A stretch of DNA of 64,000 nucleotides from an uncultured Azospirillaceae bacterium (lineage in GTDB: Bacteria; Pseudomonadota; Alphaproteobacteria; RF32; CAG-239). The DNA lies in the NCBI GenBank assembly GCA_964410325.1, contig CAYPFN010000008.1, forward strand, positions 6,570 to 70,569, in the 5' to 3' direction. Below the pieces are notes generated by a model. The model was not told the DNA's origin, made no database searches, and was given only the letters and a program-made list of their open reading frames with translations. The translations under genes were made by a program, and so were the position numbers. Below are positions 1 to 41,736 of the stretch, one piece after another (position 1 is the first letter of the stretch; every line of letters starts with the position of its first letter).

Positions 1-5413
<5,413 letters not shown>

Positions 5414-9724: not shown

Positions 9725-9786
9725 TTAAAATCTTATCCTTGTTTCCGGTTAAAATTTAAAACAAAACCCGCTTATATAAAAAATTG

Positions 9787-9835
9787 CACGCCAGTGTGCG
9801 AACCCTCGCTGACTGGCGGCACTCCTCGGAGTGTA
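9787..9835 (-). ncRNA. Alphaproteobacterial ffh leader RNA motif
   Basis: Minus strand reads CACUCCGAGGAGUG-CC-GCCAGUCAGCGAGGGUUCGCACACUGGC: two hairpins (cactcc/ggagtg and gccagt/actggc) upstream of ffh, matching my recollection of the ffh motif. Confidence 0.75.
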
Positions 9836-36646: not shown

Positions 36647-36723
36647 GGGGGTGTAGTTCAGTTGGTTAGAACGCTGCCCTGTCACGGCAGAGGTCGCGAG
36701 TTCGAGCCTCGTCGCTCCCGCCA
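36647..36723 (+). tRNA. tRNA-Asp (GTC)
   Basis: 77-nt cloverleaf; anticodon arm ctgcc-ctGTCac-ggcag; T arm gcgag-ttcgagc-ctcgt; encoded CCA; upstream TTGCAT-N17-TATTAT. Confidence 0.97.
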
Positions 36724-37054: not shown

Positions 37055-37996
37055 ATGGCTGAATATAAAACAAAAGTTCTTATCATCGGATCTGGCCCTG
37101 CCGGTTATACAGCGGGCATTTATGCTTCCCGTGCCGGCTTAAATCCGGTTTTGGTTTCTGGTTCCCAAATCGGCGGACAGCTGACTATGACCACGGATAT
37201 CGAAAATTTTCCAGGTTTTGCCGAACCAATTTCCGGACCGCAGTTAATGGATAATATGCTCAAACAAGCCCAAAATGTCGGCACGTGCATTGTTAACGAC
37301 AAAATCACGGAAGTGGATTTCAATCATCGCCCGTTTATTTGCAGTTCTGAAAACGGCAACGTTTTTCAGGCGGAAACCGTTATTATCTGCACCGGTTCTT
37401 CCGCCCGCTGGCTGGAGCTTGAATCTGAGAAAAAATATATCGGTTTTGGTGTGTCGGCATGCGCAACCTGTGACGGATTCTTTTATCGTGGCAAAAATGT
37501 GGCTGTCGTCGGCGGCGGTAACACCGCAGCGGAAGAAGCGCTTTATTTGACCAATTTTGCCGCCAAAGTCTACTTAATCCACCGTCGCGATGCGTTACGC
37601 GCCGATGCCGTTATGCAAAAGCGGCTGCAAGACAATCATAAAATTGAAATTGTCTGGAACAGCGTTATCGATGAGGTCTTAGGTTCTGATCAGCCCTTGG
37701 GCGTAACTGGTATTAAACTCCGCAACGTAAAGACAGATACAGTTTCGCAAATGCCTTTAGATGGTTTGTTTGTCGCCATCGGCCACCATCCCAATACAGA
37801 TATTTTCAAAGAATATATTAAACTAGACCGTGAGGGCTATATCATCACCGCACCAGGTGGCACTGCCACCAACGTTCCTGGAGTGTTTGCTGCTGGCGAT
37901 GTGCAAGATCCAAAATTCCGCCAAGCCATCACTTCTGCCGCAACTGGTGCCATGGCCGCTATGGAGGCCGAAAAATATCTGGTTGCCCAGGACTGA
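37055..37996 (+). CDS. trxB: Thioredoxin reductase
   Basis: GSGPAG, GGQL, CATCDG, GGGNTA, HRRD, GVFAAGDV. Confidence 0.97.
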   Translation: MAEYKTKVLIIGSGPAGYTAGIYASRAGLNPVLVSGSQIGGQLTMTTDIENFPGFAEPISGPQLMDNMLKQAQNVGTCIVNDKITEVDFNHRPFICSSENGNVFQAETVIICTGSSARWLELESEKKYIGFGVSACATCDGFFYRGKNVAVVGGGNTAAEEALYLTNFAAKVYLIHRRDALRADAVMQKRLQDNHKIEIVWNSVIDEVLGSDQPLGVTGIKLRNVKTDTVSQMPLDGLFVAIGHHPNTDIFKEYIKLDREGYIITAPGGTATNVPGVFAAGDVQDPKFRQAITSAATGAMAAMEAEKYLVAQD

Positions 37997-38014: not shown

Positions 38015-38049
38015 AAAACACTGCCTTTAATTCTGGCAGTGTTTTTTTT
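38015..38049 (+). terminator. Intrinsic terminator after trxB
   Basis: aaaacactgcc / ggcagtgtttt stem followed by a T run. Confidence 0.85.
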
Positions 38050-38052
38050 GAC

Positions 38053-38080
38053 TTGACATTTTACCAAAAACTGTTAATTT
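38053..38080 (+). promoter_or_regulatory. Putative sigma70 promoter of the NAD salvage operon
   Basis: TTGACA-N16-TAATTT with an extended TG; predicted start about 38086, at the 5' end of the RNA motif. Confidence 0.6.
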
Positions 38081-38085
38081 ATAAT

Positions 38086-38140
38086 TGTTCTTGGTGCTTG
38101 CAGGGCTTATAGGCAGAGAACATTATAACAACCCGAGCCA
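38086..38140 (+). ncRNA. Candidate riboswitch aptamer, copy 1 (unassigned class)
   Basis: P1 tgttctt/gagaaca, 2-nt bulge, P1a tgctt/aggca, loop gcagggcttat, then aaccc and gagcc (pseudoknot partner of ggctt). Confidence 0.65.
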
Positions 38141-38202
38141 GGTTATGTTCAGGAAATTTGTATTTCCTTTAATAACGTGGCTCCTTAGTAAGGAGTTTTT
38201 TA

Positions 38203-38745
38203 ATGTCTGAATTTAAATATCAACATGGTTTAACCATTATGCGCGCCCAACCGTTTCATATCGGGCACGTTAAATTGATTGACTGTATGTTAAACGAATG
38301 CGAACGTGCCACCGTTATTCTCGGTTCCATTCAGGAACAAGGCACTGCCCGCAATCCTTTAAATTACACTACCCGTAAAAAAATGATTCAAAATATTTAT
38401 CGACATCGGCCGGAATATGAACGCTTAAAAATCATCGGCTTGTTTGATATTAATAATCCGGCCGAATGGGGCGAATATGTCTTAGATTTTATTGCCGAAA
38501 CTTTTCCGGATTTGCCACAACCTGATGTTTATTATGCGGGAAGTACATATGATGCTCATTGGTTTAAAGAATGTTTCAAGCATATTGAATTAGTTGATCG
38601 TACGGATCCAGCATTTCCATTTGTCAGCGGTTCCATGATCCGCGACATGATAAAATTCGGCGACGAACGCTGGAAAAATTTTATTCATCCTGAAAACCAC
38701 CATATTGTTGAGGAATATTTCAATCGCAAAAAAGCAATTATTTAA
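38203..38745 (+). CDS. NadM-like nicotinate/nicotinamide-nucleotide adenylyltransferase (cytidyltransferase fold)
   Basis: RAQPFHIGH (HIGH motif), ILGS, NPL...R..MI, VSGSMIR; operon context. Confidence 0.75.
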   Translation: MSEFKYQHGLTIMRAQPFHIGHVKLIDCMLNECERATVILGSIQEQGTARNPLNYTTRKKMIQNIYRHRPEYERLKIIGLFDINNPAEWGEYVLDFIAETFPDLPQPDVYYAGSTYDAHWFKECFKHIELVDRTDPAFPFVSGSMIRDMIKFGDERWKNFIHPENHHIVEEYFNRKKAII

Positions 38746-38768
38746 TCTCAGCCGCGCATAATGCGCCA

Positions 38769-38835
38769 AACGCCTGCGTCTTCTGCAGGGCTTATAGAAG
38801 ACAGGTGTTCTAAACTTTAACCCATGATAAGCCTG
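38769..38835 (+). ncRNA. Candidate riboswitch aptamer, copy 2 (unassigned class)
   Basis: P1 aacgcct/aggtgtt, 2-nt bulge, P1a gtcttct/agaagac, identical loop gcagggcttat, then aaccc and aagcct next to the Shine-Dalgarno. Confidence 0.65.
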
Positions 38836-38849
38836 AAAGGGGAAATACC

Positions 38850-39476
38850 ATGACTAAAACCGTTTTAATGCGAATAGATTTTCAAAACGATTTTGTGCAT
38901 CCGCAAGGGCGCCTGACTGTTAATGCGCCAGACTTAATCCACAGACAGCAAAAATTTGCCGCAAATTTGCAAAACAATATGTTTGATATTATTATTGATT
39001 CATACGATACCCATTTTTTGGAAACATATGATGATACTATTGAGGCTGAAACTTATCCGCCACATTGCATATTCGGCAGCAAAGGCTGGCAGTCGGCTGC
39101 ACCGTTTAAGAATAATATCCCGCTTATCAAAATTTTTAAGTCCACCACTAATATCTGGCATGAAAAACACGCCTATGCTGTCTTAAACAGCAGTTGGAAA
39201 GACAAAGAAGTTTATTTATGCGGCGTTCTAAGCGATGTCTGTGTCAAACAAGCGATGGATGGTTTATTAAAACGCGGCGCCAAGGTAAGCATCTTGGAAG
39301 ACTTGTGCCTAGGATTACACCGCCAAATTCCGGAAATTTTAAGCGACAGCCAATATCGGCAGTTTATTAACAGTGGCAGGCTACGCAGCCTCAGCAGTTC
39401 CCAATTTTTCCGCAGCTGTTTGCTGGAACAAAAAAAACTTCACAATCACGTTCATCTTAATCGAGGAGATAAATAA
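38850..39476 (+). CDS. pncA: Nicotinamidase (isochorismatase family)
   Basis: IDFQNDF, D.H, PPHC, K, GVLSDVCV; operon context. Confidence 0.85.
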   Translation: MTKTVLMRIDFQNDFVHPQGRLTVNAPDLIHRQQKFAANLQNNMFDIIIDSYDTHFLETYDDTIEAETYPPHCIFGSKGWQSAAPFKNNIPLIKIFKSTTNIWHEKHAYAVLNSSWKDKEVYLCGVLSDVCVKQAMDGLLKRGAKVSILEDLCLGLHRQIPEILSDSQYRQFINSGRLRSLSSSQFFRSCLLEQKKLHNHVHLNRGDK

Positions 39477-40951
39477 TGACAACTGCAATTTTATCATCAG
39501 GCACGCCACTTTTCTGCGATCTATACCATTTAACCATGGCTCAGGCCTGGTTTATGGATAACAAGCACATGATACCTAAAACCTCTGAAGCGTTTTTCCG
39601 CAAATGTCCGTTCGGCGGCAGTTATCTTTTAAGTGCCGGCTTGCAGGAATTTTTGCAATGGGCGCAAAATTGGCACATCGGTCCTCATGATATTGAATAT
39701 CTTGCTGGGCTTAAAAACAGTGAAAATCGGCCATTGTTTAAAACTGAATTTTTAGAATTTTTAAAAGGACAATCTCTGCAGTTGGACATTCAGGCCGTCC
39801 CCGAAGGTGAAATCGTTTTTCCGGGAGAACCGATTATAAGTGTTAGTGGTCCGAGTTGGCAAGTTGATATGATTGAATCCGCATTTTTAAATATCTTTAA
39901 CGCTCAAAGCCTGATAGCCACTAAGGCCTCGCGCATGGTTACGGCGGCCACGGCTGACGGAACGCCACGTCCGGTAATGGAATTTGGTCTGCGTCGCGCA
40001 CAAGATTTAGGCTGTTTTTTACCGACCCGCGCCGCATTTATCGGCGGCTGTTCTGGCACTTCAAATGTTAAAGCGGCAAAACATTACGGCATTCCGCCGC
40101 AAGGAACCATGGCGCATTCTTTTATTATGAGTTATGCCGACGAACTGGACGCATTCAAAACCTATATGCGCGCCTCAGATGGAAACACCACTCTGCTGGT
40201 GGACACTTATGATACCCGCCAAGGCATCAAAAACGCCATTCGCGCCGCGCAGGAAACTGGCATCAAGCTACAAGGCATTCGTATTGATTCCGGCGATCTG
40301 GCTTATTGGGGAAAAGAGGCCAAAGCCATGTTTGCAGCCGCTGGTATGTCGCATGTCCGCCTGTTGGCTTCCAATGATCTGGATGAATATTTAATTGAAA
40401 ATCTGATTATGGTGCAAAACGCCCCATATGATGCTTTTGCCGCCGGCACCAAATTGGTAACCGCGTATGATACGCCGGCTTTGGGAGGCGTATACAAAAC
40501 CAAGCAATATAACGGCGAGCCAAAAATCAAAATTGCTGAGGGCAAAACCACTATTCCCGGGGCAACTAACGTCTTACGGATTGTTAAAAACGGCAAATTT
40601 GAAGGAGATATCATTACCCGCCGGCAGGATTTAGACTCTTTGCTTAACAACGGGCATTTAGCCAAAAGCCTGACTTCATGGCGCCTCAATTCCACCACCG
40701 GCGAACGCTTAACTTTTGCTACCGGGGAGCAAGCTTACAGCCTGCTTAAGCCAGTTATGATAAACGGCCACGTGATTGCGGAAGATATCAATTACCCGCT
40801 ATCGCAAATTCAACGCAAAGCCACTCAAAATCTTAACTGTTTGGATAAAGCTTATAAACGCCTTGCTAACCCGCATTTTTACGGCGTAGGATTAGAACAG
40901 GATTTATATAAACTGCAGCAAAACTTAATCAAACAACATCAGGAGCGTTAA
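39476..40951 (+). CDS. pncB: Nicotinate phosphoribosyltransferase
   Basis: DLYHLTM, FFRK.PF, EFGLRRAQ, GTMAHS, LVDTYDT, GIRIDSGD, ASNDLDE, LGGVYK. Confidence 0.93.
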   Translation: MTTAILSSGTPLFCDLYHLTMAQAWFMDNKHMIPKTSEAFFRKCPFGGSYLLSAGLQEFLQWAQNWHIGPHDIEYLAGLKNSENRPLFKTEFLEFLKGQSLQLDIQAVPEGEIVFPGEPIISVSGPSWQVDMIESAFLNIFNAQSLIATKASRMVTAATADGTPRPVMEFGLRRAQDLGCFLPTRAAFIGGCSGTSNVKAAKHYGIPPQGTMAHSFIMSYADELDAFKTYMRASDGNTTLLVDTYDTRQGIKNAIRAAQETGIKLQGIRIDSGDLAYWGKEAKAMFAAAGMSHVRLLASNDLDEYLIENLIMVQNAPYDAFAAGTKLVTAYDTPALGGVYKTKQYNGEPKIKIAEGKTTIPGATNVLRIVKNGKFEGDIITRRQDLDSLLNNGHLAKSLTSWRLNSTTGERLTFATGEQAYSLLKPVMINGHVIAEDINYPLSQIQRKATQNLNCLDKAYKRLANPHFYGVGLEQDLYKLQQNLIKQHQER

Positions 40952-40953
40952 AT

Positions 40954-41736
40954 ATGAATGAGACAATTTGGAAGAAACTTAAACAAGGGCTTGAAAATTA
41001 TTGTCGAAGCAACGGTTTCCAAACTGTTGTTCTGGGATTGTCCGGCGGTATTGATTCTGCACTGACGGCGGTTTTGGCGACTGATGCTTTGGGTGGCGAA
41101 AATGTTAGTGCAATCATGATGCAGAGCAAATTTACCTCGCCTTTAAGCATGGAAATTGCCCGTGAAACTGCTAAATTAAACAATTTTCAATATCATGAAT
41201 TGAATATTGAATCGCTGGTTGCCACTGAGCAAGATTTCTTAACCGCGGCATTTGGCGAAACACCTAAAGGCATTGTCATGGAAAATCTGCAAGCCCGTAT
41301 CCGTGGCAAAATTCTGATGTCCTGGTCCAATCAATACGGCGGTCTGGTTTTGGCCTGTGGCAACAAATCTGAGGCAGCTACCGGATATTGTACCTTATAT
41401 GGTGATACCTGTGGCGGATTAATGCCCATCGGCAATTTATACAAAACTGAAGTTTTTGCATTGGCTAAATGGCGCAACGCCCAAAGCCGGGTTTTGCCCA
41501 GCGAAGTTTTGATACGCGCGCCAAGTGCCGAACTTTCCTTAAACCAGAAAGATGAAAACACTTTACCGCCCTATCCGATTCTAGATAAAATTCTCAGGCT
41601 TTATATTGACGAACATAAAACCAAAGAACAAATTATTGCCGCCGGGTTAGATGCCCAAACCATCGATTGGGTAATTAAACGTTATCATGCTATGGATTTT
41701 AAACGGCGGCAGATGCCTCCGGCTTTGGCTTTATAA
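40954..41736 (+). CDS. nadE: NAD+ synthetase (synthetase domain only, NH3-dependent type)
   Basis: GLSGGIDS, ENLQARIRG, GNKSE..GY.TLYGD, PSAEL..NQKD...LPPY..LD. Confidence 0.93.
   Translation: MNETIWKKLKQGLENYCRSNGFQTVVLGLSGGIDSALTAVLATDALGGENVSAIMMQSKFTSPLSMEIARETAKLNNFQYHELNIESLVATEQDFLTAAFGETPKGIVMENLQARIRGKILMSWSNQYGGLVLACGNKSEAATGYCTLYGDTCGGLMPIGNLYKTEVFALAKWRNAQSRVLPSEVLIRAPSAELSLNQKDENTLPPYPILDKILRLYIDEHKTKEQIIAAGLDAQTIDWVIKRYHAMDFKRRQMPPALAL

Follow-up and report, generated by a model that had tools for sequence, protein, structure and literature searches.

The 64,000-nucleotide stretch of DNA analysed here, referred to as the window, contains an operon for the salvage and final synthesis of nicotinamide adenine dinucleotide (NAD) that carries two copies of one structured RNA. 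The first copy (type 1) lies at the predicted start of the transcript, in the leader of a gene for an NMNAT-like adenylyltransferase. The second copy (type 2) lies in the spacer between this gene and pncA, and the genes pncB and nadE complete the operon. That an apparently undescribed cis-regulatory RNA is present in two copies is well supported by the comparison of related genomes. Each copy is a bulged hairpin whose 11-nt terminal loop can pair with a short segment further downstream. The element is probably a cis-acting OFF switch used twice in one mRNA, and its best reading, in which we have somewhat more than even confidence, is a new riboswitch candidate for NAD+ or a near relative.

Each copy folds into a basal stem (P1), a 2-nt bulge in the 5' strand, an upper stem (P1a), and the terminal loop (L1). 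The two copies lie 685 nt apart and serve different cistrons. They share the 14-mer TGCAGGGCTTATAG, which occurs exactly at only two sites in the window (38099-38112 and 38784-38797), both on the plus strand. About 15 pairs of identical 14-mers are estimated to arise by chance in 64 kb. As such a repeat is not rare, the case for the element rests on the shared architecture, the covariance-model score, and the conservation at both positions. A covariance model of the hairpin, designated R1, scores each copy at 45.5 bits, and the next best match in the window reaches 12.5 bits. An earlier note, written from the sequence alone, had described two copies of one structured RNA with an identical 14-mer, each with a two-part stem, a 2-nt 5' bulge and an 11-nt loop, and had pointed to covariation between the two stems. 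Both copies are indeed present and fold in this way, and the covariation extends to 62 distinct type 2 and 73 distinct type 1 sequences. The motif ends given in that note, 38140 and 38835, are each a base or two too generous.

With the NMNAT-like protein as query, 114 species-level genomes were matched, and 80 loci encoding proteins of 74-94% identity were fetched. The loci come almost throughout from uncultured gut or rumen Alphaproteobacteria, and one belongs to Candidatus Scatocola, assigned by NCBI to Rhodospirillales. A parser for the loop and stems recovered 147 instances from the 80 loci and the window. R1 gave 150 matches in the 80 loci, every one on the gene strand, with 80 upstream of the NMNAT-like gene and 70 in the NMNAT-pncA spacer; no match in these loci lies outside the two positions. 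Type 1 is found in all 80 loci. Type 2 is found in 68 of the 69 loci in which pncA adjoins the NMNAT-like gene and in none of the nine loci that lack this arrangement, and two more genomes (L193 and L218) have pncA without type 2. Genomes that keep only NMNAT-nadE retain type 1. Overall, about 90 related genomes of gut and rumen Alphaproteobacteria share the hairpin in both settings, where transcription of the NMNAT-like gene is predicted to begin and just 5' of pncA. The gene context is constant, being an NMNAT-(pncA)-(pncB)-nadE operon in a single syntenic context within one clade.

A genome-wide search with a type 1 pattern returned at least 120 matches. Among the matches listed, 39 have the hairpin and 81 lack the stems and match by chance; all 39 are from gut or rumen Alphaproteobacteria and stand before the same NAD operon. 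A pattern search of viral contigs yielded seven matches, none with the hairpin. Lineages whose NMNAT is 66-70% identical to the query (L215, L216, and L218) carry the motif. In lineages at 57-63% identity (L208-L214 and L217) the motif was not found, and the leaders are short or lacking. The motif is therefore limited to one sub-clade. In a sister lineage without the motif, with 60-62% identity in NMNAT, the divergent spacers between a porin gene and the NMNAT gene share GCAGAGTCAATATAnnTTGTATTTGC (L212, about 3443-3470; L213, about 3420-3450), which may be a DNA operator doing the regulatory job there. Two records bear the alphaproteobacterial operon and motif under other names, L005 being labelled Lachnospiraceae and P0077/L218 being named Lactobacillaceae by NCBI. 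Both are probably mis-binned or mislabelled contigs.

The stems of both types are maintained by covariation. For type 2, comparison of the 62 distinct sequences over stems and knot shows 95.5% of cells paired, and both partners change at 12 of 21 pairs; for the stems alone, the fraction is 11 of 14 pairs. The observed values were reached in none of 500 shuffles, and sliding one strand lowered pairing to 35-51%. For type 1, 95.9% of cells are paired in the 73 distinct sequences, compared with 30-54% in the slid controls, and 12 of 20 pairs show changes on both sides, including five of six pairs in P1 and all five pairs in P1a. The bulge is GG, GC, UG, or CG, with a G always present.

The terminal loop behaves differently. 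Its consensus is G[C/A]AGGGCUUAU, in which AGGGCUUAU is almost frozen overall and invariant across the type 1 sequences; the loop variant GAAGGGCTTAT was counted 36 times. Searches for further variants gave only chance matches, 18 with a metagenome pattern (type 1 L1 with a non-U base at position 26) and four with a genome pattern (type 2 L1 with a non-U base at position 27). The stems drift while the paired loop bases stay frozen, a pattern also seen in riboswitch cores. Pairing alone does not seem to account for the constraint on the paired bases of L1. The 3-bp knot of the NAD+-II riboswitch likewise has frozen bases and does not tolerate compensatory mutation. The most divergent carrier, L216 (2857-2893 and 3552-3610), helps to define which loop bases are dispensable. 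Its type 1 loop, GAUGGGCUAAU, has the changes A21 to U and U27 to A, the latter uncompensated in GAGCC, and its type 2 loop, GAAGGGCCUAU, faces the partner AUGGCC, which is one base short of the usual segment.

L1 docks on a downstream segment (L2) in both types. In type 2, GGCUUAU of L1 and AUAAGCC of L2 form seven contiguous pairs, with 98.8% of cells paired. The pair U26-A66, formed by U38792 and A38830 in copy 2 of the window, is present in 59 distinct sequences and is replaced by C26-G66 in three. The same double change from U-A to C-G occurs again in L078 and in L216, the latter representing a separate lineage with an NMNAT only 66% identical. By our reading of the sequences, it arose independently at least three times. 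In type 1, GGCUU of L1 and GAGCC form five pairs that are all invariant. Since GAGCC does not vary, the type 1 docking is silent with respect to covariation.

The two dockings differ in geometry. GAGCC is centred in the 7-nt loop of a second hairpin (P2), so that type 1 makes a loop-loop contact, whereas type 2 is an H-type knot. P2 forms with 4-7 bp in all 42 distinct flank combinations and covaries. Its strands are mostly AAAC[CU]/GGUUU, with AACC/GGUU, AACU/AGUU, and GAAC/GUUC in others and GAG/CUC in L216. The H-type pseudoknot that the earlier note had assigned to both copies stands for copy 2, with the compensatory change behind it, and gives way to the loop-loop contact through P2 in copy 1. 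Similarly, the succession of AACCC and RAGCC read in both copies survives in part: the copy 2 partner is real and longer than proposed (ATAAGCC), but AACCC is not a shared element. AACC[CU] is conserved before pncA only, and the leader word is AAAC[CU], the 5' strand of P2. Before pncA, CCC goes with a GGG Shine-Dalgarno sequence and CCU or CC with an AGG-type sequence (Fisher p = 0.0007, uncorrected for relatedness). This association is no more than suggestive of a pairing between CCC and the GGG of the Shine-Dalgarno sequence in type 2. A CUGC:GCAG pairing in copy 2 was also considered and rejected, as CUGC is kept beside GAAG loop variants.

The leader copy is tied to a promoter and to an expression platform. 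In the relatives, represented by 76 distinct upstream regions, the promoter has the -35 box (C)TTGAC(A/T), replaced in a few by TTGCAA or TTGATT, and after 16 nt the -10 box TAnnnT, which 6 nt separate from the G of GUUCU. In the window, the predicted +1 is at about G38087, at the start of P1, as the earlier note had placed it. The pair involving T38086 is often broken in type 1, and pairing from G38087 is kept. At the other end, essentially all distinct leaders terminate in GGCUCC (AGCUCC in a few), GGAG, a U run, and (A)AUG.

Sequence comparison demonstrates the folds, the pairs formed on docking, and the competing helices; in the leader, the helices are mutually exclusive. The unconstrained minimum-energy fold of the window leader contains the long-range alternative helix listed in Table 1 (-34.8 kcal/mol, z = -2.9). 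In the relatives, the position 3' of GAGCC and the position 5' of GGCUCC covary, being G-C in 51 leaders and A-U in 12; in most of the nine A-C cases, AGG/CC with a bulged A is possible. Withholding GGCUU of L1 and GAGCC of L2 from folding leaves every base of the Shine-Dalgarno GGAG paired in 75 of 76 leaders; with both segments free, this is so in 27 of 76. The mean unpaired probability of GGAG drops from 0.30 to 0.00, and the constraint costs 3.2 kcal/mol on average. Because the Shine-Dalgarno sequence closes at so small a cost, the switch seems poised, with docking as the OFF state. A leader peptide starting at ATG 38146 was rejected, as this stretch is variable among relatives. In six type 1 leaders (L065, L067, L069, L073, L074, and L080), an insert of 60-130 nt (GATAAATTTATCTAGCTGGCAAC...) lies between P2 and GGCUCC. 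It lengthens the leader to 144-221 nt, leaves the motif and platform undisturbed, and may represent an additional domain or a small mobile element.

In type 2, the knot ends 3-6 nt upstream of the Shine-Dalgarno sequence and there is no conserved competing helix. In the window, L2 ends just upstream of the Shine-Dalgarno sequence of pncA, in agreement with the earlier reading that copy 2 abuts it. Copy 2 was also considered as a plain terminator of the NMNAT-like gene and was rejected, as it is not followed by a U run. A small hairpin, GCGCA-UAA-UGCGC, lies at 38754-38766 between the NMNAT stop codon and the type 2 P1. It is outside the motif core, and similar small hairpins are present in some relatives only.

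These elements suggest a mechanism in which docking of L1 on L2 would turn off the whole NAD salvage and finishing operon (NMNAT-like gene, pncA, pncB, and nadE). In copy 1, L1 holding L2 would free GGCUCC to pair with AAGGAG, and the resulting terminator-like hairpin with its U run would hide the first Shine-Dalgarno sequence. When L1 does not hold L2, GAGCC would instead pair with GGCUC, and the NMNAT-like gene would be expressed. In copy 2, the 7-bp docking helix, together with possible CCC:GGG pairing at the Shine-Dalgarno sequence, would block translation of pncA and possibly pncB. We propose that a small molecule binds the RNA directly and so stabilises docking. The molecule sensed would be the end product NAD+ or a close relative, such as nicotinate adenine dinucleotide (NaAD), NADH or NADP, nicotinamide or nicotinate mononucleotide (NMN or NaMN), or ADP-ribose. 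Since type 1 persists in genomes with NMNAT-nadE alone, the end product is a likelier ligand than nicotinamide or nicotinate.

Several features are those by which riboswitches are generally recognised: a covarying structured domain, mutually exclusive folds tied to a terminator or Shine-Dalgarno sequence, and association with genes of one pathway. By analogy, a small conserved knot that serves two platforms from one core, follows OFF logic, and stands at genes of cofactor biosynthesis would be riboswitch-like. A number of points weigh against this reading. The motif is small, and its conserved unpaired positions are few, namely A21, G22, the bulged G, and, in type 1, A28/U29. The 7-bp loop-tail helix could form without ligand, and the Shine-Dalgarno sequence of the leader is only partly free in unconstrained folds, as its mean unpaired probability given above indicates. 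The enrichment at NAD genes expected by the earlier note is found in the sense that the motif always accompanies a NAD operon, but this is one syntenic operon in one clade and not many independent associations. Finally, several sites in one operon, each with a conserved hairpin loop, are a signature of protein-mediated attenuation of the PyrR type.

The last point leads to the main rival of the riboswitch reading, which we consider unlikely, though it deserves the most weight among the alternatives. An RNA-binding protein, possibly a NAD-pathway enzyme or a dedicated regulator loaded with a metabolite of the pathway, would read L1 or the L1-L2 contact at both sites and thereby choose between the two folds, in the manner of PyrR or TRAP. 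PyrR acts at three sites of the Bacillus pyr operon, and its hairpins resemble the candidate in having a conserved terminal loop on variable stems, copies placed in the leader as well as between the cistrons of a single biosynthetic operon, and a choice of alternative folds at each copy. The scarcity of conserved unpaired bases and the freezing of L1 even where it is base-paired also fit recognition by a protein. However, the PyrR sites are read by the protein and their loops are not complementary to downstream sequence, whereas the candidate loop makes an RNA-RNA contact that, given the L1-L2 complementarity and its compensatory change, needs no protein. No linked candidate RNA-binding gene was seen in the loci examined, and several known classes of similarly small pseudoknot aptamers bind their ligands directly.

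Less probable still is an element that works without a ligand, in which a constitutive knot fixes translation at a low level, serves in mRNA protection or processing, or senses temperature or Mg2+. In favour of this explanation, the seven L1-L2 pairs before pncA ought to be stable by themselves, and type 2 lacks a conserved competing helix. Type 1, however, has a conserved and covarying competitor together with a terminator or sequestor, an arrangement that makes sense only as a two-state device, and the energy gap of 3.2 kcal/mol between its states is small.

We regard it as very improbable that the motif is a divergent member of NAD+-I (nadA motif) or NAD+-II (pnuC motif), and the earlier note had likewise set it apart from both classes. 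It shares their metabolic theme, and a small bulged stem with a knot near a Shine-Dalgarno sequence is reminiscent of NAD+-II. In Rfam 15, the window motif has no family match at the gathering score or even at E <= 10, and ten relatives have none at the gathering score; the 4227 models searched gave no match, the presence of the pnuC motif among them being unconfirmed. The published architectures also differ. NAD+-I, found in Acidobacteria, consists of tandem domains, each a bulged stem with the internal bulge ACANCCCC. Neither copy has ACANCCCC in its stem, where the bulge measures 2 nt. The window leader does contain ACAACCCG, which resembles it, but this lies in a linker and has no conserved counterpart in the relatives. 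In NAD+-II, found in Streptococcus, the conserved bases lie in the large internal loop that joins P1 and P1a; the terminal loop varies, and a 3-bp knot links the internal loop to the Shine-Dalgarno sequence. The stems of the candidate are separated by just 2 nt, and it is the terminal loop that is conserved and forms the knot, its partner being GAGCC or AUAAGCC on the 5' side of the Shine-Dalgarno sequence.

The weakest alternative, which we judge hardly credible, takes the conserved word for an operator in double-stranded DNA, bound by a transcription factor of the NiaR, NrtR, or NadR type, and the hairpins for incidental: although copy 1 adjoins the promoter, the stems differ in sequence yet covary to stay paired, the conserved word is non-palindromic and on the sense strand in 150 of 150 copies, copy 2 is intercistronic and without a promoter, and L1 has a complementary partner downstream, with a compensatory change between the two. 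The earlier note had named beforehand the chance that the 14-mer acts as such a site, and the covarying stems and sense-strand-only copies disfavour it.

Among known RNAs, NAD+-II is the one that the riboswitch candidate probably resembles in outcome. Both are small single-domain RNAs in NAD-related mRNAs, with two stacked interrupted stems, a long-range knot near the Shine-Dalgarno sequence, frozen knot bases, and a predicted OFF response. The candidate differs in its 11-nt conserved terminal loop, in its 5-7 bp helix upstream of the Shine-Dalgarno sequence, in its genes (NMNAT, pncA, pncB, and nadE rather than pnuC), and in its phylum. With NAD+-I it shares a NAD biosynthesis gene, a predicted OFF switch, and two related units per mRNA. 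The NAD+-I units, however, stand in tandem in one leader and have no loop-tail knot, whereas the candidate units are far apart, serve different cistrons, and have another core.

Other parallels are known more generally. In copy 2, the loop pairs with a 3' tail at the Shine-Dalgarno sequence and folding would block initiation, as in preQ1-II and SAM-II/SAM-V, but there is no similarity in sequence or core, the candidate stem is a bulged one of 12-15 bp, and the Shine-Dalgarno sequence adjoins the knot and is not inside it. Copy 1 recalls guanidine-II (mini-ykkC) in having two hairpins with their loops paired together, the second tied to expression. The guanidine-II hairpins are alike, with ACGR tetraloops and two loop-loop pairs, in contrast to the 11-nt and 7-nt loops, five pairs, and unrelated sequence of copy 1. 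Full-text literature, covered incompletely and including structured-RNA surveys of 26 genomes, 50 genomes, and the human microbiome, describes no pncA, pncB, nadM, or nadE motif and no NAD+-III class.

More tentatively, and with somewhat less than even confidence, the element may represent a third NAD+-sensing riboswitch class that is structurally unrelated to the other two. Its aptamer would be a loop-loop or loop-tail knot built on one frozen 11-nt loop. At the 5' end of the mRNA this core would drive a terminator-type platform, and between cistrons it would occlude the Shine-Dalgarno sequence. Such a class would control the last two universal steps of NAD synthesis plus nicotinamide salvage.

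The coordinates of the operon and of the RNA elements are collected in Table 1. The gene assignments of the earlier note agree with the Pfam and NCBIfam results. For the NMNAT-like protein, the top NCBIfam matches are nicotinamide-nucleotide adenylyltransferase models of the NadM/archaeal type, all under the cut-off. The four co-oriented genes would lead from nicotinamide through nicotinate, NaMN, and NaAD to NAD, with the NMNAT-like enzyme presumably acting at the NaMN step. The trxB terminator divides trxB from the operon, and a comparable hairpin with a T run precedes the promoter in the relatives. One relative (L050) encodes a second NMNAT-like paralogue at 4880-5407, 1.3 kb downstream of the first. 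Elsewhere in the window, Rfam matches mark a tRNA (36647-36720, plus strand) and an ffh small RNA (9781-9833, minus strand), the latter barely over the gathering score (37.1 versus 35 bits).

Table 1. Positions of the genes, promoter boxes, and RNA elements of the NAD operon in the window.
Feature	Position	Strand	Description	Basis
trxB	37055-37996		Upstream neighbour of the NAD operon	
trxB terminator	38018-38049	+	Hairpin ACACTGCC/GGCAGTGT (38018-38042), then U run	Read from sequence
-35 box	38053-38058	+	TTGACA, operon promoter	
-10 box	38075-38080	+	TAATTT (TAnnnT), 16 nt past the -35 box	
Copy 1 (type 1) hairpin	38086-38122	+	P1, 2-nt 5' bulge with conserved G, P1a, 11-nt L1	Fold; R1
Copy 1 P1	38086-38092 / 38116-38122	+	TGTTCTT / GAGAACA	
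Copy 1 bulge	38093-38094	+	GG	
Copy 1 P1a	38095-38099 / 38111-38115	+	TGCTT / AGGCA	
Copy 1 L1	38100-38110	+	DNA GCAGGGCTTAT, RNA GCAGGGCUUAU; GGCUU (38104-38108) pairs with GAGCC	
Copy 1 P2 hairpin	38130-38144	+	AACC (38130-38133) / GGTT (38141-38144); 7-nt loop C-GAGCC-A	
Copy 1 L2	38135-38139	+	GAGCC, partner of L1, inside the P2 loop	
Alternative helix, 5' strand	38135-38146	+	GAGCCAGGTTAT; antiterminator or anti-sequestor, pairs with 38172-38183	Fold
Alternative helix, 3' strand	38172-38183	+	ATAACGTGGCTC; GGCTC common to the terminator/sequestor stem	
Terminator-like hairpin	38179-38197, U run to 38201	+	GGCUCCUU-AGU-AAGGAGUU; 3' arm is the Shine-Dalgarno sequence	
Shine-Dalgarno of NMNAT-like gene	38190-38195	+	AAGGAG; ATG at 38203	
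NMNAT-like adenylyltransferase gene	38203-38745	+	NadM/archaeal type	Pfam CTP_transf_like
Copy 2 (type 2) hairpin	38769-38809	+	P1, bulge, P1a, L1	Fold; R1
Copy 2 P1	38769-38775 / 38803-38809	+	AACGCCT / AGGTGTT	
Copy 2 bulge	38776-38777	+	GC	
Copy 2 P1a	38778-38784 / 38796-38802	+	GTCTTCT / AGAAGAC	
Copy 2 L1	38785-38795	+	GGCUUAU (38789-38795) pairs with AUAAGCC	
Copy 2 AACCC	38819-38823	+	CCC may pair with the Shine-Dalgarno GGG	
Copy 2 L2	38827-38833	+	AUAAGCC, 3' strand of the pseudoknot; full 7-nt complement of GGCUUAU	
Shine-Dalgarno of pncA	38839-38842	+	GGGG, 5 nt past L2; ATG at 38850; same layout in relatives	
pncA-like gene	38850-39476	+	Isochorismatase family	Pfam Isochorismatase; weak NCBIfam match
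pncB	39476-40951	+	NAPRTase N, core, and C domains	Pfam; NCBIfam equivalog cut-off passed
nadE	40954-41736	+	NH3-type	Pfam NAD_synthase; NCBIfam equivalog cut-off passed

NAD+ is among the most abundant and ancient cofactors. Only two classes of NAD+ riboswitch are known; both are rare, each is confined to one narrow group, and their scarcity has been remarked on in the field. The candidate described here sits on the genes that make NAD, those for the adenylyltransferase and NAD synthetase, and on nicotinamide salvage. Its secondary structure is backed by about 150 examples, and at about 60-75 nt it is short enough to be crystallised or probed in-line. Should NAD+ or a precursor prove to be its ligand, the RNA would provide a new fold for the recognition of nicotinamide or ADP. 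It would also be a natural case of one aptamer core driving two expression platforms per transcript, and a compact sensor part. For the uncultured Alphaproteobacteria that are common in the gut and rumen, it would offer a handle on NAD homeostasis.

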